64,000 bases of DNA from Candidatus Altimarinota bacterium (GTDB taxonomy: Bacteria; Patescibacteriota; Gracilibacteria; JBDHUY01). The translations under genes and the position numbers were made by a program. Below, piece by piece: positions 1 to 9,147 of the stretch; positions within the stretch are counted from its first letter, which is position 1, and the number at the start of each line of letters is the position of its first letter. Location of the stretch: positions 1-64,000 of the forward strand of contig JBDHUY010000002.1 in assembly GCA_039809385.1 (NCBI GenBank), given 5' to 3'. A model generated the notes under the pieces. That model was not told the DNA's origin, did not search any database, and was given only the letters and a program-made list of their open reading frames with translations.

Positions 1-280
1 CAAGGCAGGAATCAAGAAGGGAGAAATGGAGAGGGGAGTGGGGAGAACGGAGAGGAAGCAGGGAGCTAACAGTTTATAGCTAACAGCCTACAGCAAGGCA
101 GGAATCAAGAAGGGAGAAATGAGGAGGGAGGAGCAGGCAGGCAGTTCACAGCTAACAGCTGACAGCCAGACAGGAATTGAGAAAAGAGAAGAATTCTGCA
201 AGGGCCAACAAATTTCCATGAATTTCTACAAACTTCCGTTTCTCTCTTGACTTTGAATTCTATATTCTTGATTCCCTTGT
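1..280. repeat. Stack of short-repeat families (purine heptamers, GCTAACA/GCTGACA heptamers, AATCAAG, AATTTCTACAAA core)
   Basis: 28-bp direct repeat CAAGGCAGGAATCAAGAAGGGAGAAATG at 1-28 and 94-121; core shared with the pilin-cluster spacers. Confidence 0.75.
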
Positions 281-390
281 TTCTCCTTTGCGTTTCCTGA
301 CCGCAGACTCTTTTTCGTCCTCTTTTTCTGGTTGTCTTGTTGTTTTTATAGTATACTACGCGCAGTGTCTTGATTTTGTGGCTTATTTTC

Positions 391-2304
391 ATGGAAATAC
401 AGTCATTGCTGCGAAAATCCGGGACCTATCTGCATGAAAAAGAGATTCAGCTCGTAGCAAAATCTTTCGAATTTGCGCAACATGCTCACGACGGACAATT
501 TTTGCGTTCGGGCAAAAAGTTCATCGTTCATCCGCTGCAGACAGCCATGATTTTGGCAGATCTCCACAGCGATGCAACCACAATCTGCGTAGGATTGCTC
601 CATAACATCCCTCAGTATACTTCTCAGGGGACGGTATCAGTAAAACGAGCATTCGGTTCGGAAATTGCAAGCATGGTCGACGAAGTAGGAGCCTTATCTA
701 AAATCCGCTACTACGAGGGGATGAGCGAGGAACAGCTGGATCTCATGCGCAAGATAGCTCTTACCATGACAAGGGATTCCCGTCCGTTAATCGTAAAAAT
801 GGCTTCACGACTCCATCTCATGCAGAGTTGGGATTACGTTTCGGAAGAAGCCAGACATAGGATTGCACTTGAGTCTCTCGAAATTTATGCCGTTCTGGCA
901 CACCTCTTGGGGATATGGAACCTGCGCTGGCAACTCGAAGATATCAGTTTTTTATACCTGCATCCTCAAGAATATAAGGATATTCAGTCGCAATTTCTCG
1001 CGCTTAAGCAGATTCGCCACCAGTATATTCAGCAGGTTACCAGGAAGACCCAAAAAGAGCTTAAAAAACTTCAAATTCGCTGTCTGCTGGAGGGGCGTTT
1101 TAAACATTTCTACAGTATTTACAAAAAACTTCATACGAAACAGAAAGAGTTTGACGAAATCTACGATGTTTTCGCATTACGGGTTATCGTCGACTCTGTG
1201 GACGAATGTTATCGTGTGTTGGGGCTGATACACGGACTTTTTCGCCCGGTACTGGGGCGGCTCAAAGATTATATCGGCGCGCCGAAAGAAAACGGGTACC
1301 GCAGTATTCACACCACGGTTTACGGTCCGGAAAACCACCCTGTCGAGTTTCAAATCCGGACGCATCAGATGCATGAAGAGGCGATGTATGGTGCTGCCGC
1401 TCACTGGTTATATAAAAAAAACGTTTCCCGGTTGTCACCTTTGACCGTATGGGTAAAGGAGATTTTTCATTTTCGCAAAGACGAGGCTCAGCAGGAATTT
1501 GTCTGGAGCAAGCGTTTGAATATTTTACCCGGACGTATCTTCGTTTTTTCTCCCAAACGCGATATTCTCGAGCTACCGGAGGGATCTACTCCGCTCGACT
1601 TTGCCTATTCGGTTCATAGCAATCTGGGACATCAGTGTATGGGAGCGATTGTCAATCATAGAGAAGTGACGCTGGATTACCCGCTAAAAACCGGAGATAC
1701 GGTTAATATCGTACGAGGAGAATATGAAAATCCTAACCCGAAATGGCTGAGTATTGTCAGGACGACCAAAGCGAAAGAGTATATCCATGACTGGCTGGCT
1801 CTTAATCAAGAAGATCAGGAAATACGTCAGGGTAGACTTATATTGCAAAAAGAGATTAACCGCTATGTCGGACGGGACCTTCGGCATGCACTTGAGGCTA
1901 TACTTGACAGATTTCCTTCTTTTAAAACCGCTGAGGAATTGTACCGTGCGATTTTTCGTCAATCCGTTACCCCCTACATGTTGTTATCCCGATCGTATTC
2001 CGAAATGGTTTTGTTGGGATCCCACCATGTTCTGATGCGCTTTTCGGCCGATAAGCAGGGTTTTTACCGGCATTCTACCGCTCTCTCTTTGCGTTTGCGC
2101 GGTGATCGCGAAATCGTTTTCAAAGTATTTGCCGCGCTCGCCGATTTTCCTCTTACGATAGAAACGGTCAGCAAAACGCTCGAACATTCGATCAATCGTA
2201 CCCTACTCAAAATCTCTTTACACATCGGAAAATTTCAGTTGCTCCATGCGGTTTGTACCGAACTGGAAAAAATTCCGGAGGTAGAGTCGATTACCAAATT
2301 GTAA
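391..2304 (+). CDS. Long RelA/SpoT homolog (HD-SYNTH-TGS-ACT), hydrolase motifs degenerate
   Basis: GRxKHxYSIYKK, RLKDYI, NGYRSIHT, EFQIRT..MH, AAHW.YK, TGS (STPLDFAY); HDxxED reads HNIPQY; ATG at 391. Confidence 0.92.
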   Translation: MEIQSLLRKSGTYLHEKEIQLVAKSFEFAQHAHDGQFLRSGKKFIVHPLQTAMILADLHSDATTICVGLLHNIPQYTSQGTVSVKRAFGSEIASMVDEVGALSKIRYYEGMSEEQLDLMRKIALTMTRDSRPLIVKMASRLHLMQSWDYVSEEARHRIALESLEIYAVLAHLLGIWNLRWQLEDISFLYLHPQEYKDIQSQFLALKQIRHQYIQQVTRKTQKELKKLQIRCLLEGRFKHFYSIYKKLHTKQKEFDEIYDVFALRVIVDSVDECYRVLGLIHGLFRPVLGRLKDYIGAPKENGYRSIHTTVYGPENHPVEFQIRTHQMHEEAMYGAAAHWLYKKNVSRLSPLTVWVKEIFHFRKDEAQQEFVWSKRLNILPGRIFVFSPKRDILELPEGSTPLDFAYSVHSNLGHQCMGAIVNHREVTLDYPLKTGDTVNIVRGEYENPNPKWLSIVRTTKAKEYIHDWLALNQEDQEIRQGRLILQKEINRYVGRDLRHALEAILDRFPSFKTAEELYRAIFRQSVTPYMLLSRSYSEMVLLGSHHVLMRFSADKQGFYRHSTALSLRLRGDREIVFKVFAALADFPLTIETVSKTLEHSINRTLLKISLHIGKFQLLHAVCTELEKIPEVESITKL

Positions 2305-2314
2305 CTTTGTTTTT

Positions 2315-3301
2315 ATGGTGGCTCAGCGCCGCGTACAAAATATTGTATTGCATAACAAGATAAATGAGGATTCTCTTCAGCGGGAATTTTTGGCCTCTTT
2401 GCAGAATCGCAAAATCGATTCCAAATTTCTGTACTGGGGGCGGATTGGTACGGAGCGATGGCAGGCGTTGTGTCAGGATAAAAGTTATCTGTATTATCAG
2501 CGAGAGCTGGCACTCCTGAAAAAAGCTGCGGCTAAATTGTGTGACTCGGTTCATAGCGAACCGAATCGCCATTATAATCTGATTGCGCTCGGAATCGGCA
2601 ATGGCGATAAAGATCGGATAATTATTGAAAATTGCTATAAGAAAGGTCGTATCGGCTTTTTTCCGATCGATATCAGCGAAGATATGGTACGCGACGGTAT
2701 TGAGCAGATACCCATATCTTTGCTCGAAACTATGGAAGCGTACGTGGCCGATTTCTCGCAGCTCGATCTGGTGAATCAGGCTATCCGCTCAGCCAATTTT
2801 CCGAATAATTTTTTCCTTCTGCTCGGCAATTCGGTCATGAGTATTAACGAGCTCGACGTGTTTCGCCGCCTCAACAAAGGTATGAGCGCGGGCGATTATC
2901 TCCTGCTCGGGGTGCTGCTGCACGATCCAAACGACGTTCAGTCGATCAGCCGCCTTCTGGAAATGTATACTACGCCGGTTTTTCAAAACTTTATACTTTC
3001 GCCGCTCGAACGAATCGGTATCTCTTCTGCCGACGGAAACATCGAGGCCGAATACGGAACAAATCGTTTTTTCCCTCAGATCTATACGATCGAAGTATTT
3101 TTCTCCTGTAAAAAAAATATTACCTGTAACTACTTCCAGCAAGAGATCTCCTTACTCAAAGGCGAACGGATACGTCTTTTCCAGTCGCATCTTTATCCGG
3201 AGGGGAGTATGCAGGAAGTTTTGGAAGGCACCGGTTTTCGTATCGTGGATCATTTCTCTTCGACCGATAAACTGGCCGGCCTGTTTCTTTGCACCAAATA
3301 A
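2315..3301 (+). CDS. EgtD-like (L-histidine N-alpha) SAM methyltransferase
   Basis: SKFLYW, YYQRE..LL, ALGIGNGDK, PIDIS, ADF, LLGNS motifs parallel EgtD. Confidence 0.75.
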   Translation: MVAQRRVQNIVLHNKINEDSLQREFLASLQNRKIDSKFLYWGRIGTERWQALCQDKSYLYYQRELALLKKAAAKLCDSVHSEPNRHYNLIALGIGNGDKDRIIIENCYKKGRIGFFPIDISEDMVRDGIEQIPISLLETMEAYVADFSQLDLVNQAIRSANFPNNFFLLLGNSVMSINELDVFRRLNKGMSAGDYLLLGVLLHDPNDVQSISRLLEMYTTPVFQNFILSPLERIGISSADGNIEAEYGTNRFFPQIYTIEVFFSCKKNITCNYFQQEISLLKGERIRLFQSHLYPEGSMQEVLEGTGFRIVDHFSSTDKLAGLFLCTK

Positions 3302-3392
3302 TTCATTTATTACTAACGTCATAGATGCCGAATATTGCTTTTTACAATACTCTGATCATACAGGTTCGTTTGTTTGCTTGAGAAGAAGTTTG

Positions 3393-4112
3393 TTATGCCG
3401 ATACAAGAGTAGTTATGAAAAGCTTTGTCTCCGGCCCCCGAGAGTTATTTTTGTACGCCGCGACATGTTCAAGCGCGGTGCTGGCTTGTAAAAAACGGCG
3501 TAGCGAAAAACCATGAGGCAGTTTTGGATGAGCGACAGGCGTATGTCCGCAGTGGCGTAGTTGTTCTACTAAATCAAGAAAAAGTTGGCGGTATTTTTTC
3601 GGTATGCGCAGTTCCTGTTGCAGACAGATCGGCAGTAAGAAACCTGATGTGTCCTGTTTCAGTCGTTCCTGCCTTTCGGAAGGCAGCGTCTTCATCGTTG
3701 TCAAATTATGCAGTCGATCGAAAAGCTTGATAAAAATAAGCAGGGGATCGCGCTGTACCGCCTGATCGAATTCGCTATAATAACGGATTTTGCGGTCGGT
3801 ACGTGTCAGATCGCTGGTTTTATGATAATCGGTCATGGCATTTACCAGAAAAGCTACTTTTCTGCCAAAGCGTTCTTCCAGATCGATTACTCTAAAAACG
3901 GTGTCTTCTACCACGTCGTGTAAGACCGCCGCGATGCAGTAAGCCAAGGGAAAACCATGTCCGCATAATTGCTGCATGACCCAGATCGGATGTGAGACGT
4001 AGGTCTCGCCGCTGTGACGTTTTTGACCACGGTGGGCCCGGATGGCAAATTCAACCGCCCGCGCGAGTCGGATATGTTTTCCCTGTAAAAGGGTGCGTAG
4101 TTCTTTTTCCAT
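3393..4112 (-). CDS. Stand-alone HD-domain (p)ppGpp hydrolase-like protein (SAH)
   Basis: AHRGQKR.SGETY..HP, LHDVVEDT, IKLFDRLHN intact; start MEKEL inferred. Confidence 0.85.
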   Translation of the reverse strand: MEKELRTLLQGKHIRLARAVEFAIRAHRGQKRHSGETYVSHPIWVMQQLCGHGFPLAYCIAAVLHDVVEDTVFRVIDLEERFGRKVAFLVNAMTDYHKTSDLTRTDRKIRYYSEFDQAVQRDPLLIFIKLFDRLHNLTTMKTLPSERQERLKQDTSGFLLPICLQQELRIPKKYRQLFLDLVEQLRHCGHTPVAHPKLPHGFSLRRFLQASTALEHVAAYKNNSRGPETKLFITTLVSA

Positions 4113-4331
4113 AGAAGATTGTACGAAGTAAAACATCCGCACTCTAAAAGAAGCCCTTGCGGACAACTACTGAAAAAAATAAGACAACCATTGATTGAGA
4201 TGGCTAAATCGCCAAAAATGCATGTCAAATCTTCACCGCATTCGTACAGATGTGTCTGTTCACAAAAAGAGCTACCGCCGATACCGTGGATAACTCTTTT
4301 TGTACAATACCTCTTCCAGTGTATATGGGCT

Positions 4332-7001
4332 TTAACTTCGATTGGAACGGCTCCTCAGAATCTGATAGATGGCTACGACAACTTCTTTACGCGTCATTAG
4401 CCGGGAAGGATCCAATTGGGTCAAACTTCTCTCGGGCAATAGATTATATTTTTGTGCGATTCCCGCATAGCGGGCAAACCATATGTTTCCTGGTACATCC
4501 GTATAGGAGTACGAGAGGTTTTGTTCCAGATCGAATGTTATTGTCAGCATTTTCAGGAATTCGGCCGTATTGATATTTTTTTCGGGGCCAAAGGTTCCAT
4601 CCGGGTATCCGGTGACCAGTCCGTTCCCATAGGCAGCCATGACATACTTTGCATACCACGTTCCCGCTACGATGTCTTTAAATTTCGAAATATTGTACTG
4701 AAATATCAAGCCGGTTCGTCCCACCAGGATTTTTGCGACTTCGGCCCGATTGATCTTTTTCGATCCGTCGAACATGTTTCCGGCGTACCCCTGGAGAATA
4801 CCGCGTCGAAAAAGTTCCAATGCCCCGTCTCCTTCCAGCGTTCCCAGCGTTGTATCGGTGAAAGGATTGGTATAATGGTATGAGTCTAAAACCGGAGTAG
4901 CATAATCCCGGGCCGGGGGGACATCCGATAAGGGACTATACACCTGCACGATCTTTTCATATTCTTCACTCAGGTTGCCGGAGCTATCCTGTATGATAAA
5001 TCGCAGATGATACGAGCCGACGTTTGCAAAACTATGAGATACCTGATTCGATGTCCCGGAAAAAAATTCCCGACGTTCCTCAATATTCAATTCCAGATTA
5101 GTTCGGTATGAATCTTCCCAGAACACTTCGTATATATAGCCATTGGTTCCGCCGCCGGCTGATGCTGGAACGATGGTCCAGCTTCCTGTTTCGCCGAGGA
5201 GGAGTTTATCCGGTCCTTCCACTGTCTGAATGACCGGTTTTAAAGCACTATTCTCGTTGCTGTTGAGATTTGCATTACTGTTTTGTCCGGAAGAATTGGT
5301 ATTGCCATTTCCGTTACTGTTGTTGTTTCCATTGGCGTTATTGTTTGCCGGCGCGGTTTGATTCGGATCAAAGGAGAGCGAGCGTCCGGTTATCGGAAAA
5401 TTACCGGTAGTATCCGAAGCAGTTGAACGGCTGGAATTTTTGTCTTCCAGCTCAAAGGTATATGTTACTGGTGTGACTTCTCGATCTTTGAAAGATGCAA
5501 CCAATTGAATGGACTGCGTATTTATGATACTCAGGGGGGACAACAACGGAAACGTATATACTCCCGCACCGTTGAATCTAACGCCATCGCTGAGTATTTC
5601 TCCGTTTTCGCTTTCCAGACGTAAACTGTCTAACAGCTGCGGTGAAGCGCTTGATTGTACCCGGAAACTGAGTTGGTAAAGGTTCACGTTTTTCGAGCCC
5701 GCCGAGCTCAATAGTCCTTTCCAAACGACCGCTTTTCCGCTGTCTGTATTGGCCAGGATCAAGTTTTCCAAGGCGACCCTCTGAAAGTCCAGTATGGTCG
5801 TATTGGAAAAGGCATCATTGGATAATCCAACTGTGGACCCGGGAAGTTCCGAAAAAAGAGCGCCGTTCATCCAGTCATTGCTCGCGGGCGAGGTAAGACC
5901 GTGAGGAACAGCGCCGTTATCCGACCAGATGATCTTGGTTGTACCGGGAAATGCGCCGAACGGCTGCCGGATAAATCCGTTGGTTGCTTCTCCCGCCAAA
6001 CGGGTACTGATACTTTTGGCTGTCGAGTTCAATTCTTTGACATCGGCCTTGAGCACAAACCATTTTATGTCGTTCTGACCGATTGTTTCTCCGTTCTGCG
6101 GTGCGTTACGGTCCAGGTTCAGCGAGACAGTTCCGCTGGAAGCGAGTGCCGGCTGGGTCAGGTTCAATGGGGTCGAAGAACGATTCTGGTCGTAGAGCGT
6201 AATGTTGGAGAGCTGGGTATTATTCAAATGTATATCGAAACTCAAACGGGCTATTTCGCTATCGTCGCACCCCTGGTTGAGAATGCCGAAACGGAATATT
6301 TCCAGCTGCGAAGCCGGAATAACGGTATTGGAAGCGAGATCTTGTTCCAGAAAGAGCAACCGGTTTCCTACGAGCGCGAAATCATCCGATTCTCCCCGTA
6401 CCAAACCCGGTACGATCTCCTGGCCGTTCACAACAAAGATCGCCCGAATCCCCTGAGTGGTTCCGGAAACAAAATTGCCTGGATTATTGGGATCGATGGT
6501 TCCTCCGGCTGCTGCTTCGGGAATAGTTGCCAGATGGAGTCTTGCTCCCAGTTGATCGCGATCATAAGTTTCATGAAAACGTACCGAGACGGTCGCGGTA
6601 ATCGATCCGTCACGGGGTACGATGAAAGCTCCCTCTCCCATACTGAAATGAACCAGACCGTTGCTTAACGTAGCGGTGGTTTTTCCGTTCCCGTAGTCCA
6701 AGACCAGCGCTTCGATCAGGCTGTCGGCTTCTCCGCTGACACGGTTTGTAGCTGGATCGATATTTACCAGGTAAAGATCTCGCACCTCTATATCCGAAAG
6801 ATCGGCTGACAGTTTCAGTCGGAAAACCGGAGATTCGGCACTGCAAACGGAAATTGTCCGGTCGGAAGGCGTGCCGTTGTCACGGTCAACTACCAAACGG
6901 GTTGCGGCATGTACCACCGGAATTCCCGAATAAGCCCCAAAAAACGAAGTAGCAGCTATTGTCAGAGCCGTCAATCCTGTCCAAAATTTTCTTGATCGCA
7001 T
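4332..7001 (-). CDS. Large secreted S-layer homology (SLH) protein
   Basis: Signal peptide, Ig-like beta-rich body, Asn-rich linker, three C-terminal SLH repeats (INRAE, GYPDGTF.P, MTRKE). Confidence 0.85.
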   Translation of the reverse strand: MRSRKFWTGLTALTIAATSFFGAYSGIPVVHAATRLVVDRDNGTPSDRTISVCSAESPVFRLKLSADLSDIEVRDLYLVNIDPATNRVSGEADSLIEALVLDYGNGKTTATLSNGLVHFSMGEGAFIVPRDGSITATVSVRFHETYDRDQLGARLHLATIPEAAAGGTIDPNNPGNFVSGTTQGIRAIFVVNGQEIVPGLVRGESDDFALVGNRLLFLEQDLASNTVIPASQLEIFRFGILNQGCDDSEIARLSFDIHLNNTQLSNITLYDQNRSSTPLNLTQPALASSGTVSLNLDRNAPQNGETIGQNDIKWFVLKADVKELNSTAKSISTRLAGEATNGFIRQPFGAFPGTTKIIWSDNGAVPHGLTSPASNDWMNGALFSELPGSTVGLSNDAFSNTTILDFQRVALENLILANTDSGKAVVWKGLLSSAGSKNVNLYQLSFRVQSSASPQLLDSLRLESENGEILSDGVRFNGAGVYTFPLLSPLSIINTQSIQLVASFKDREVTPVTYTFELEDKNSSRSTASDTTGNFPITGRSLSFDPNQTAPANNNANGNNNSNGNGNTNSSGQNSNANLNSNENSALKPVIQTVEGPDKLLLGETGSWTIVPASAGGGTNGYIYEVFWEDSYRTNLELNIEERREFFSGTSNQVSHSFANVGSYHLRFIIQDSSGNLSEEYEKIVQVYSPLSDVPPARDYATPVLDSYHYTNPFTDTTLGTLEGDGALELFRRGILQGYAGNMFDGSKKINRAEVAKILVGRTGLIFQYNISKFKDIVAGTWYAKYVMAAYGNGLVTGYPDGTFGPEKNINTAEFLKMLTITFDLEQNLSYSYTDVPGNIWFARYAGIAQKYNLLPERSLTQLDPSRLMTRKEVVVAIYQILRSRSNRS

Positions 7002-7306
7002 AGGATAAAAAGATGAAGTAATAAAGTTGAAAGTTTGTATCGGAGCTTTCTATATGAAAACAATGCGGTAAGCATAGTTGGAGTTTCTTCTATGTTGTCT
7101 ATTCTTTTGCAGATACGAAGATATCTTTTGTAAAACTGATTTTACATTACTCTGTTTTGAAAAAAAATCAATTCTGCGCTAGACTCTTTTTCAGCTATGC
7201 GTATTTCACCAGTCTGCAGGTATACTCTATAACGCTTTCACCATCGCTCATGTTACAAATCCTGTAAAAGAGAGCGCACATCTTATTTGTTCTGAATCTC
7301 CTTGCA

Positions 7307-8386
7307 ATGGATTATATCTGGATTTTTCTTCTGGCATTTCTGACGAGTTTTCTGCTTTCCAAGCTGGTTATCTTTCTTTTTCCGCGGATCGGTTTGATGG
7401 ATCGTCCGCAAAAATACGGACACAACCGTCCGCCTATCCCGTATCCTGCCGGAGCGGTTCTGTATGCTACGTTTGTTATTTTTTTGCTGATTTTGTCGGC
7501 GTGGGATGCTAAGACGATCGCTTTTGTTAGTGCGGTTACTCTGTTGTTTGTCGTGAGTTTTTGGGATGACCGCCGGGGAATCTCTCCGCTAGTACGACTC
7601 TCCATCCAGATATGCGCCGCGCTTATTATGGTTTTGGCAGGCGTCTCTGTTATTGGCGTGAGCAACCCTTTTGGTACCGGAAGTCTCTTACTAGAACAGT
7701 GGAACTGGGATATCGTTTTTCCGTTTTTTTCTCAAAATATTTCCCTTCTGTCTACGATTATTACCGTTGTGTGGATCGTTCTGTTTATCAATACGCTCAA
7801 CTGGCTGGACGAACCCGGTATCGTAGGCGGGGTGGCCGGGATCAGTTTTTTTATCATTTTTTTACTGAGTCTCACGCTGGCTTTGAGGACGAATGTCGGG
7901 GTAGACGAGATTCGCAATGCCGATATGATCGCGCGGCTCGCTATCGTGGGAGTGGGTATGTGTGCGGCTTTCTTGCTCTTTAATTTTCCGCCAGCCAAGG
8001 TTCTGATGGGTGACAGCGGCAGTATTGTACTCGGATTTATTCTGGCCATTCTGGCGATTTATTCGGGAAGTAAAATCGCGACCACGTTTCTGGTGCTGGG
8101 CTTTCCGGTGCTCGATGCTGTCGTCGTCATCGGACGGAGGATATTGCAGGGAAAATCGCCGCTCAAAGGCGATTTCAGTCATTTTCACCACCGGCTGGTG
8201 CGGATCGGTTTTTCCGAACGCGGTATGGTCATGACAATTTACCTTATTTGTCTGATTTTCGGGATGCTGGCGCTTTTTCTGGGAACACAGGGAAAGATTG
8301 TGGCGATTATTCTGATGATTCTGGTTTCGATCCTGATCGAATATCTGGTCTTTTATCAGGAAAAGAGAAATCAGAAGCCGCTTTGA
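7307..8386 (+). CDS. WecA/TagO/MraY-family polyprenyl-phosphate GlcNAc-1-P transferase
   Basis: WDD, NTLNWLD, FNFPPAKVLMGDSGS, DFSHFHH; multi-TM. Confidence 0.9.
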   Translation: MDYIWIFLLAFLTSFLLSKLVIFLFPRIGLMDRPQKYGHNRPPIPYPAGAVLYATFVIFLLILSAWDAKTIAFVSAVTLLFVVSFWDDRRGISPLVRLSIQICAALIMVLAGVSVIGVSNPFGTGSLLLEQWNWDIVFPFFSQNISLLSTIITVVWIVLFINTLNWLDEPGIVGGVAGISFFIIFLLSLTLALRTNVGVDEIRNADMIARLAIVGVGMCAAFLLFNFPPAKVLMGDSGSIVLGFILAILAIYSGSKIATTFLVLGFPVLDAVVVIGRRILQGKSPLKGDFSHFHHRLVRIGFSERGMVMTIYLICLIFGMLALFLGTQGKIVAIILMILVSILIEYLVFYQEKRNQKPL

Positions 8387-8433
8387 TTGTTTGGCCCCCG
8401 GCCATATGGTATACTATACAGAATAGCTTTTTT

Positions 8434-9147
8434 ATGGTGCTAAAAAAATACCTGCTTTCGGGAATGTTGCTGTCGGCTTTCTTTCTGGCGAACCTGTCCT
8501 GGATTCATCCCGCCTTTGCAGAGACATCGGGTACGCCCGGGGCTGCTTCCTCAGGCACAACCGACAACTCTTCCAATCAGGAGTTGAGGGAAAAACTTCT
8601 CAAACCGATCAATACCTGTACTGTGTTACCGGGAAGTCTGGGATGTCCGGTGAAGAATGCCAATGGTTCCAGCAATACTACCAATGCCGCGAAGCCCAAG
8701 TCTTTGGATGATTTTGTCAGTACGATCATTGGAATTATGTTGAAATTTCTGGCTTCGGTCGGTATCGCCGTGGCGATGTACGGCGGGGTTCGCGCCATGA
8801 CTGGCGGGGGCGATGTGGCTATGAAAAAGGGGGTCAGTGCTCTGACCAGCGCGGTGATCGGTATTATTTTGGTGTTGATCTCCTATACGGCGATTACGTT
8901 TGTGCAGAGCGTGATCAGCGGGGTAGGAGGCGAATCCGTTTCTTCTTCCTCGAATGCTTCATCCGGTTCCGGAAAGGCTCCGGCCGAGGGAACATCACCA
9001 ACCGCTACCCCCTCCACGTCTAATCCGAATTCTCCTTCAAATACTCTTCCTCCCGATATTATTGATTCTCCGACTCCCGGACGTCCCAATCCTTTCCCGA
9101 GCCCTAATCCCAATGATAGCGGTGTGCCAGGGACACAAAATGGTTGA
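8434..9147 (+). CDS. CPR pilin-like (VirB2/T4SS_pilin) protein with Pro/Ser-rich tail
   Basis: Signal peptide, Cys pair, TM-GG...K.K-TM hairpin; start ATG 8434. Confidence 0.7.
   Translation: MVLKKYLLSGMLLSAFFLANLSWIHPAFAETSGTPGAASSGTTDNSSNQELREKLLKPINTCTVLPGSLGCPVKNANGSSNTTNAAKPKSLDDFVSTIIGIMLKFLASVGIAVAMYGGVRAMTGGGDVAMKKGVSALTSAVIGIILVLISYTAITFVQSVISGVGGESVSSSSNASSGSGKAPAEGTSPTATPSTSNPNSPSNTLPPDIIDSPTPGRPNPFPSPNPNDSGVPGTQNG

Follow-up and report, generated by a model that had tools for sequence, protein, structure and literature searches.

The window analysed here is a 64-kb stretch of DNA, the first 64 kb of contig C2 (JBDHUY010000002.1) in the genome of a Candidatus Altimarinota bacterium (G000; 1.87 Mb, 26 contigs, 95% complete), and its subject is a gene pair close to the contig start, in which a long RelA/SpoT homolog (RSH) is followed by a protein of the Methyltransf_33 (MT33) family. 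Coordinates 370-4166 are filled by three open reading frames (ORFs), at 370/391-2304(+), 2315-3301(+) and 3393-4166(-). The first, W_RSH (391..2304, + strand), encodes a 637-residue long RSH paralog of the [hS] type, combining a pseudo-hydrolase domain with an active-looking synthetase domain; its start at ATG 391 is backed by an ortholog on the metagenome contig L101, likewise of 637 residues, with which it aligns from residue 1. After the W_RSH stop codon, which ends at 2304, come 10 nucleotides (nt) of spacer (2305..2314, +), in which no Shine-Dalgarno-like purine run is visible on inspection, and then the ATG at 2315 of W_MT (2315..3301, +), which encodes a 328-residue EgtD-fold MT33 protein that is not an EgtD equivalog and also has an ortholog on L101. 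W_SAH (3393..4166, -), a stand-alone HD_4 hydrolase gene, is convergent to W_MT, with the two stop codons 91 nt apart, and encodes 257 residues from TTG 4166 or 239 from ATG 4112. Logan contigs from public sequencing runs, identical to the window, span both the RSH/MT junction (X1 record 6, X2 record 13) and the MT/SAH junction (X3 record 23); these runs may include the window's own source sample, so they do not count as independent support for contiguity.

The Pfam domains of W_RSH are, in order, HD_4 (1e-33), RelA_SpoT (6.5e-41) and TGS (9.7e-20). The protein belongs to the long RSHs by its match to TIGR00691 (RelA/SpoT family; 535.7 bits, cutoff 499.2), and falls well below the cutoffs of both the RelA equivalog NF008124 (355.4 versus 728 bits) and the bifunctional Rel/SpoT equivalog NF008303 (416.3 versus 947), the hydrolase motifs expected of the latter being broken too. 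In the pseudo-HD domain (HD_4; residues 1-195, 391..975, +), alignment with Bacillus subtilis Rel (6yxa) pairs LLHNIPQYT with FLHDVVEDT and MASRLHLM with LADRLHNM, leaving HN..QY for HD..ED and ASRLHL for DRLHN. The synthetase (SYNTH) domain (RelA_SpoT, PF04607; residues 196-345, 976..1425, +) keeps GRLKDYI, NGYRSIHTT, VEFQIRT and AAHW, with RLKD, YRSIHT and EFQIRT intact, in a stretch highly similar to 6yxa, and its residues D259, E319, Q321 and R323 are invariant across a 26-sequence alignment (A6). Judged by motifs, with HNIPQY and SRLHL marking the losses and GRLKDYI, YRSIHT and EFQIRT the retained set, W_RSH falls in the [hS] class. A first-pass annotation of this DNA had described a long RSH with an intact synthetase and broken hydrolase signatures, and had likened the loss of hydrolase residues and retention of synthetase residues to the RelA pattern; the 6yxa alignment and the motif scan bear out both statements.

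The same annotation credited W_RSH with TGS and ACT domains. The TGS domain (PF02824; residues 377-445, 1519..1725, +; beta-rich in the model) is clear; the ACT domain does not reach the Pfam threshold (ACT_4: 15 bits where 27 are required, E 0.041) and is seen as a fold in the AlphaFold model (mean pLDDT 83.9), where residues 560-636 form a beta-alpha-beta-beta-alpha-beta unit within a C-terminal ACT/RRM-fold region (residues 560-637, 2068..2301, +). A helical, AH/RIS-like region (residues 446-544, 1726..2022, +) is indicated by the model and by a sub-threshold RelA_AH_RIS match (E 0.062). What the annotation had missed is the loss of the conserved-cysteine domain: residues 545-559 of W_RSH are a low-confidence linker at the place where other RSHs of the class carry this domain, and the conserved-cysteine (zinc-finger) motif, which 20 of the 26 sequences in the alignment carry, is found in none of W_RSH, the L101 ortholog and G017_L085. 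The canonical C-terminal set of long RSHs is in this way present as TGS, helical and ACT folds, with the conserved-cysteine domain missing. Between W_RSH and its L101 ortholog, identity is 47% in the pseudo-HD domain, 64% in SYNTH, 34% in the helical region and 27% in ACT. W_RSH is best read as an extra, RelA-like monofunctional alarmone synthetase ([hS]), its activity being predicted from its motifs, and its HD domain as a structural pseudo-enzyme that has been retained.

RelA carries EXDD where RxKD-type RSHs carry RxKD, and W_RSH, unlike RelA, is of the latter type (GRLKDYI). It also differs from RelA in scoring below the NF008124 cutoff, in grouping with Rel sequences of its own class of the candidate phyla radiation (CPR), in lacking the conserved-cysteine domain and in being coupled to an MT33 gene. 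As the RelA[hS] group of the beta/gamma-proteobacteria is described in the relevant passages of Atkinson et al. (2011; PMC3153485), the two are alike in being long RSHs with a retained but dead HD domain and an intact synthetase, alongside a second long RSH in which hydrolase motifs are retained. The best solved match of W_RSH is B. subtilis Rel[HS] (6yxa; E 6e-128, residues 4-535), with which it shares domain order as far as the helical region, and from which it differs in the replacements HD to HN, ED to QY and DRLHN to SRLHL and in scoring below the NF008303 cutoff. W_RSH can also be compared with the second-copy Rel paralogs RshA-D, labelled [HS] in the passages of Atkinson et al. (2011; PMC3153485) that treat them, and especially RshB of Bacteroidetes with its divergent HD domain: W_RSH too is a lineage-specific Rel duplicate in which HD has diverged faster than SYNTH. 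It comes from a different lineage, however, and the passages on RshA-D mention no methyltransferase partner.

Membership of W_MT in the Methyltransf_33 family is clear (PF10017, 2e-30; 106.4 bits, gathering cutoff 23; match to profile positions 3-303 out of 304), and its score against the EgtD equivalog TIGR03438 is far too low (77.7 bits, cutoff 290.9). The model of the protein is confident (pLDDT 91.8), and a fold search places it on EgtD structures with a TM score of 0.80, a root-mean-square deviation of about 3 Å and 16-19% identity; the next matches beyond EgtD are generic Rossmann methyltransferases, at TM of about 0.4. A phmmer search of W_MT against PDB sequences gave no matches, although the profile and fold searches did match EgtD, and a word-indexed protein search returned the query itself only. 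The EgtD-like methyltransferase that the first-pass annotation had placed 10 bp downstream of the RSH is therefore real in family, fold and spacing.

W_MT shares with Mycobacterium smegmatis EgtD (4pim, 4uy6) a two-domain fold in which the S-adenosylmethionine (SAM)-binding motifs line up in a profile alignment. The residues of these motifs (G93; P117, D119 and S121; D146; G171 and N172) are invariant in the seven closest sequences of the same type as W_MT (W-type), and the residues C82, G83, D108, S110 and D134 are invariant in nine sequences of a second, type-A branch of MT33 proteins; W_MT looks competent to bind SAM. In EgtD, E282 is, we presume, the pocket residue that specifies histidine, with a catalytic role as well. 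In the profile alignment this position ("TEVSCKF") is occupied in W_MT by F289 and is hydrophobic in the W-family consensus; E282A is named in the entry title of 4pip, a tryptophan-binding EgtD variant. W_MT also differs from EgtD in its low identity and in its context, which consists of RSH and HD_4 genes and not ergothioneine genes. Ergothioneine synthesis was considered as a role and rejected, on the low TIGR03438 score, on the failure of the EgtB model TIGR03440 to find any match in the 95%-complete genome, and on the presence of a single, unlinked rhodanese protein, a 302-residue frame on C5 that adjoins no MT33 gene (no EanB-specific model was run); the absence of an ergothioneine context, remarked on in the first-pass annotation, holds up.

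The nearest non-orthologous relatives of W_MT (P0015, P0024, P0028, P0040, P0082) carry MT33 as a C-terminal domain behind other domains. The N-terminal partners in such fusions are a TrmB helix-turn-helix (HTH), a caspase (Peptidase_C14), TIR/SEFIR (PADLOC bSEFIR, 220 bits) and CHAT. The C-terminal domain of effector or HTH fusions of this kind is usually a ligand sensor, and by analogy these architectures suggest that an EgtD-like module has been reused as a sensor in immune-type proteins.

Pairing of RSH-type and MT33 genes in relatives

What is both robust and unexpected about the locus is the METHYLTRANSFERASE link. Of 18 MT33 loci with upstream context, 16 are immediately preceded, on the same strand, by an HD_4-bearing gene (four in G000; the others in G056, G006, G024, G036, G054, G029, G048, G020, G370, G129, G424 and on L101), mostly 3-10 nt away. 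The two unpaired loci are in G004 and at C6:79438-80394 of G000, a fourth MT33 gene outside the window. Beside 50 more distant metagenome MT33 loci, 39 of them with more than 1 kb upstream, there was no RSH or HD_4 ORF detectable by BLAST.

The closest counterpart is on L101, where an RSH 45.5% identical to W_RSH over residues 1-636 is followed directly by an MT33 protein 41% identical to W_MT; the hydrolase motifs of this RSH are degenerate as well (HC, HDVPAR, ASRLNH). W-type loci with context number three (the window, L101 and G056), a fourth (G152) being at a contig edge. In G056 a 169-residue small alarmone hydrolase (SAH), a 445-residue RSH and a W-type MT33 gene stand in a row; a scan of genome contigs found this locus only. 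An exhaustive HMMER search of 1.84 billion proteins gave about 10 clear orthologous cluster representatives of W_MT and 44 matches below 1e-30; each of the metagenome orthologs P0003-P0010 forms a cluster of its own, on a contig of 1.6-8 kb.

Three type-A pairs lie elsewhere in G000 (C6:55214-57065, C3:58848-60792 and C1:173654-171794): an HD_4 gene of 293-319 residues with intact motifs is followed within 4-8 nt by an MT33-like gene of 320-326 residues. The same arrangement is found in G006, G024, G036, G054, G029, G048, G020, G370 and G129, and in G424, which belongs to another class of the phylum, a 591-residue HD_4 protein precedes the MT33 gene. W-type MT33 proteins, the rarer of these two branches, are homologous to the type-A proteins over their full length (hhalign: E 1.4e-36, probability 99.9), and W_MT thus belongs to a lineage-specific part of Methyltransf_33 whose members nearly always follow an RSH-type HD_4 gene. 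The state of the upstream partner varies, from hydrolase-intact (type-A, G056, G424) to hydrolase-dead (the window, L101), which fits binding of MT33 to the HD_4 fold or RSH protein better than a need for any one catalytic activity.

An association of RSH-type HD_4 proteins with MT33 in Peregrinibacteria-class CPR bacteria extends beyond this locus and appears to be undescribed. In the literature searched, no paper connects an RSH enzyme with an EgtD-like methyltransferase or treats the RSH repertoires of Peregrinibacteria; the supplementary neighbourhood (FlaGs) datasets of Jimmy et al. (2020), which could list methyltransferase genes conserved beside SAH or long-RSH groups, fall outside that search. 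In the accessible part of the text of that paper (PMC7229694) the words "methyltransferase" and "Peregrinibacteria" do not occur, nor does "methyltransferase" in the accessible part of Kaur et al. (2020; PMC7159879). W_RSH with its MT33 neighbour is an RSH enzyme with a new partner, and not a new system.

Several variations on these loci were seen in passing. Tandem MT33 genes, two behind one HD_4 gene, are found in L037 (G006; 5286-8402) and L041 (G054; 4708-7540), and one of the tandem genes of G006 encodes 420 residues with an N-terminal extension. In G000, a paralog family of 549-616 residues with no Pfam match has at least eight copies (C3:56993-58831, C3:60841-62691, C1:169874-171724, C6:53452-55101 and C2:66981-68735, with others on C1 and C18), and each of the three HD_4-MT33 pairs is flanked by a copy; no member was seen beside the pairs in the nine relatives' loci searched. 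On L101, at 8125-8700(-), 1.1 kb downstream of the RSH-MT pair and on the opposite strand, an ORF starts with a P-loop that presumably resembles that of guanylate kinase. Guanylate kinase is a (p)ppGpp target in some bacteria.

Other alarmone genes and the small hydrolase

RSH-superfamily genes are unusually numerous in the genome: besides W_RSH it encodes a 704-residue long RSH, a 1124-residue RSH-EamA protein, a 365-residue small alarmone synthetase (SAS) and five HD_4-only proteins (W_SAH among them). The 704-residue protein, on C6, has HDVLED and ERLHN as well as intact synthetase motifs, and is probably a bifunctional Rel of the kind that the first-pass annotation had proposed to look for. 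At least six G000 proteins other than W_SAH have intact HD..ED motifs, so that the W_RSH locus is not the cell's sole route for making or breaking alarmones. The annotation's picture of synthesis and hydrolysis split between neighbouring genes is accordingly overstated, given the 704-residue Rel, the hydrolase-intact 1124-residue RSH and the four further HD_4 proteins.

The 1124-residue RSH, outside the window at G000:C3:159023-162397 (L049:4024-7398), combines a degenerate synthetase with hydrolase motifs that are intact (HDTIED, DRLHN); it also has TGS and AH/RIS regions, with an EamA-type membrane transporter fused at its C-terminus. Long RSH-matching frames, of 920-1160 residues, also occur in G008, G017, G018, G023, G035, G038, G039 and G059, so RSHs of hydrolase type that are anchored in the membrane may be widespread in the class. 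Also outside the window, G000:C2:168622-169719 (L003) encodes the 365-residue protein, which joins a RelA_SpoT synthetase to TGS with no HD domain, an unusual architecture for an SAS.

How unusual is a hydrolase-dead long RSH in this class? The 40 best-scoring long-RSH matches from 34 relatives, chosen by similarity to W_RSH and not at random, include nine ORFs from nine genomes with broken HD..ED and/or DRLHN motifs (one N-terminally truncated ORF was excluded), and six of these nine pass both synthetase motif patterns. In a FastTree phylogeny (46 sequences, 707 columns) the hydrolase-broken ORFs are scattered over several places: the RelA-like, hydrolase-dead state, in itself an outcome already known from RelA[hS] and the divergent second-copy paralogs, arose repeatedly in this class. 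W_RSH and its L101 ortholog group with support of 1.0, followed by the hydrolase-dead RSHs of G017 (0.86) and G056 (0.855), and W_RSH is best read as having arisen inside the Peregrinibacteria/Gracilibacteria-class lineage. Several relatives in the class show in-frame TGA codons, in keeping with placing the organism in the CPR.

W_SAH has an HD_4 domain only (3.8e-21), with no SYNTH, and its motifs LHDVVEDT and FDRLHN, which the first-pass annotation had correctly picked out as the ones missing from W_RSH in a convergent stand-alone HD protein, are those of an SAH. It looks catalytically competent and, going by these motifs, could remove the product of W_RSH. It resembles Mesh1 (3nr1/5vxa), Lmo0812 (4yf1), the (p)ppApp hydrolase of 7smg and ATfaRel in being a stand-alone HD_4 protein with HD..ED and DRLHN, and differs from them in being nearest to the HD domains of long RSHs (E about 1e-23, versus 7e-13 to 1e-5 for SAH chains) and in its C-terminal tail of about 75 residues, which has no Pfam match. 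The 60 relatives hold no close ortholog, the best match being a 195-residue frame at 41%, followed by long-RSH HD domains. The SAH directly upstream of the RSH in G056 is 32% identical to W_SAH, no closer than to other HD domains, and there is no HD_4 ORF within 6 kb on either side of the L101 pair. A small HD_4 gene is near the RSH-MT pair in two of the three W-type loci, indicating some tendency of hydrolases to cluster with W-type modules; W_SAH itself is best read as an opportunistic neighbour and not as a fixed third component.

Possible roles of the RSH-MT33 pair

What is known of how long RSHs are regulated concerns mostly ribosomes carrying deacylated tRNA, together with a small number of protein or metabolite inputs. 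W_RSH has no conserved-cysteine domain and is instead genetically tied to an EgtD-fold, SAM-binding type of protein. The reading preferred here, tentatively and at something short of an even chance, is that W_RSH is a RelA-like synthetase paralog with W_MT as a dedicated accessory or sensor subunit. W_MT would bind W_RSH and couple a small-molecule cue to alarmone synthesis, the cue being SAM or S-adenosylhomocysteine and/or an amino-acid-like ligand held in the EgtD-type pocket, while the housekeeping Rel and hydrolase functions would be encoded elsewhere in the genome. Within W_RSH, the better conservation of the pseudo-HD domain than of the helical and ACT regions, relative to L101, fits binding to the RSH protein and not a dependence on hydrolase chemistry.

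A physical complex between the two proteins receives weak support from structure prediction. Full-length W_RSH and W_MT gave a complex score of 0.47 (runs of 0.47, 0.50 and 0.43), against 0.00 for the best of three controls; at least 86% of contacts are shared between the runs, and the partner has a pLDDT of 81 or more. Of 80 solved complexes, 58 attain the mark used for such scores, as do 2 of 110 mismatched pairs; scores that pass it without exceeding 0.60 include 7 of the 80 solved complexes and both of the mismatches that passed; alignments of our own were used in the prediction, so that these benchmark counts hold roughly. The prediction is counted as mild support because the conserved, tightly spaced gene order raises the prior.

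Several points weigh against a dedicated sensor subunit. By the prediction tool's own grading, a score of 0.47 is wrong in the majority of cases, except where the pairing was already likely, and the tool reports no interface. The hydrolase-dead RSH recurs in only one of the W-type loci with context (L101), and in G056 the 445-residue RSH, about 0.5 kb from the MT33 gene, has intact hydrolase motifs and a degenerate synthetase. W-type MT33 genes were found in only three of 401 class genomes sampled (G000, G056 and G152), and not in G001, the sole genome of the same family (86% complete). The glycine-rich motif varies in the wider W-type relatives P0011-P0021, and where the SAM motifs are conserved they are equally compatible with a sensor and with an active methyltransferase, hence with a chemical role.

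The main rival places W_MT itself in the nucleotide pathway, as a chemical participant. W_MT might be an active enzyme that methylates a substrate or product of the RSH (giving a methylated alarmone or other 3'-phosphorylated nucleotide), with HD_4 partners elsewhere hydrolysing the compound. This seems unlikely in the form stated. It would account for the invariance of SAM-motif residues in the seven W-type and nine type-A sequences, for the high-confidence EgtD-type two-domain enzyme fold and for the placing of MT33 directly after HD_4 in 16 of 18 loci, and the hydrophobic residue (F or other) at the E282 position in the W family, which implies a substrate other than histidine, is also in its favour. 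Pairing with a hydrolase-dead RSH in two orthologs, on the other hand, would be unexpected if HD_4 activity were needed, and to our knowledge the known Methyltransf_33 enzymes methylate amino-acid amines and not nucleotides. A fuller version, in which MT33 proteins and their RSH/HD_4 partners would make and break a methylated alarmone-type nucleotide, with W_RSH-W_MT as the synthesis arm and the three HD_4-MT33 operons plus W_SAH as turnover arms, is improbable; if true, it would amount to a second-messenger chemistry not yet described.

Another possibility, which we judge equally unlikely to that of a methylated product, is the obligate three-gene module proposed in the first-pass annotation, in which W_RSH would synthesise the alarmone, W_SAH would be its dedicated hydrolase and W_MT would modify or execute the signal. 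W_SAH does hold exactly the residues that W_RSH has lost, a 169-residue SAH adjoins the RSH-MT pair in G056, and the trio is contiguous in other assemblies. The RSH-MT adjacency in the proposal stands, through the 16 of 18 loci and L101. The third member does not: it is the hydrolase that is missing within 6 kb of the L101 pair and has no close ortholog in the 60 relatives, the SAH of G056 is no nearer to W_SAH than to other HD domains, the RSH beside the MT33 gene in G056 is itself hydrolase-intact, and at least six other proteins with intact HD..ED are encoded in the genome.

Slightly less likely again is that the functions are unrelated, with W_MT an ordinary amino-acid betaine-type methyltransferase that happens to share an operon with RSH/HD_4 genes. 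The rarity of W-type orthologs (3 of 401), the two MT33 loci with no HD_4 neighbour and the full EgtD fold are all compatible with this. Coincidence is harder to reconcile with an adjacency that holds in 16 of 18 loci (against 0 of 50 in distant loci) and spans both of the divergent MT33 branches, several architectures of RSH and two classes of the phylum, or with the 3-10 nt spacing of most pairs; the complex score of 0.47, against 0.00 for the best control, adds weak support on the same side.

A toxin-antitoxin or defence module, in which W_RSH would be a growth-arresting toxin and W_SAH its type IV antitoxin, is very improbable and was rejected as the principal explanation. Its attractions are the match of the W_RSH SYNTH region to the PADLOC candidate PDC-S33 (66.9 bits), which is limited to the shared SYNTH domain and has no equivalent for W_MT or W_SAH, and the fusion of MT33 relatives to TIR/SEFIR, caspase and CHAT effectors. 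The neighbouring genes, which from their translations we take to be a surface S-layer-homology (SLH) protein and a glycosyl-phosphate transferase-like gene, do not form a defence island. In the part of Jimmy et al. (2020; PMC7229694) that describes them, SAH enzymes neutralise toxSAS toxins, but toxSAS are single-domain SASs in bicistronic operons, whereas W_RSH is a multidomain long RSH and W_SAH is convergent, not co-transcribed and not conserved.

If MT33 is a bound regulator of W_RSH, as is tentatively preferred above, it would give alarmone signalling a new input module, in organisms unable to make most of their building blocks, and would also explain the MT33 domains found behind TIR/SEFIR, caspase, CHAT and HTH domains. 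If it is a pathway enzyme, it would point to modified alarmones.

Surroundings of the pair

No Rfam family matches anywhere in the window at gathering score, and ARAGORN finds no tRNAs. A promoter and terminator scan of positions 1-4500 gave numbers near expectation (8 promoter-like sites versus 7.3 expected, 4 terminator-like sites versus 5.3). The first ~120 bases of the window (1-121) are covered by separate, higher-depth Logan contigs, one of which, in run X2, has a loose end ahead of position 25; the assembly may have broken off here at a repeat, just short of W_RSH, in which case the true upstream neighbour of the gene would lie beyond the contig. On the other side of the three genes, at 4332-7001(-), our reading of the translation indicates an 889-residue ORF whose N-terminus is signal-like and whose C-terminal region resembles S-layer-homology repeats; it also contains a low-complexity stretch rich in Asn, Ser and Gly.

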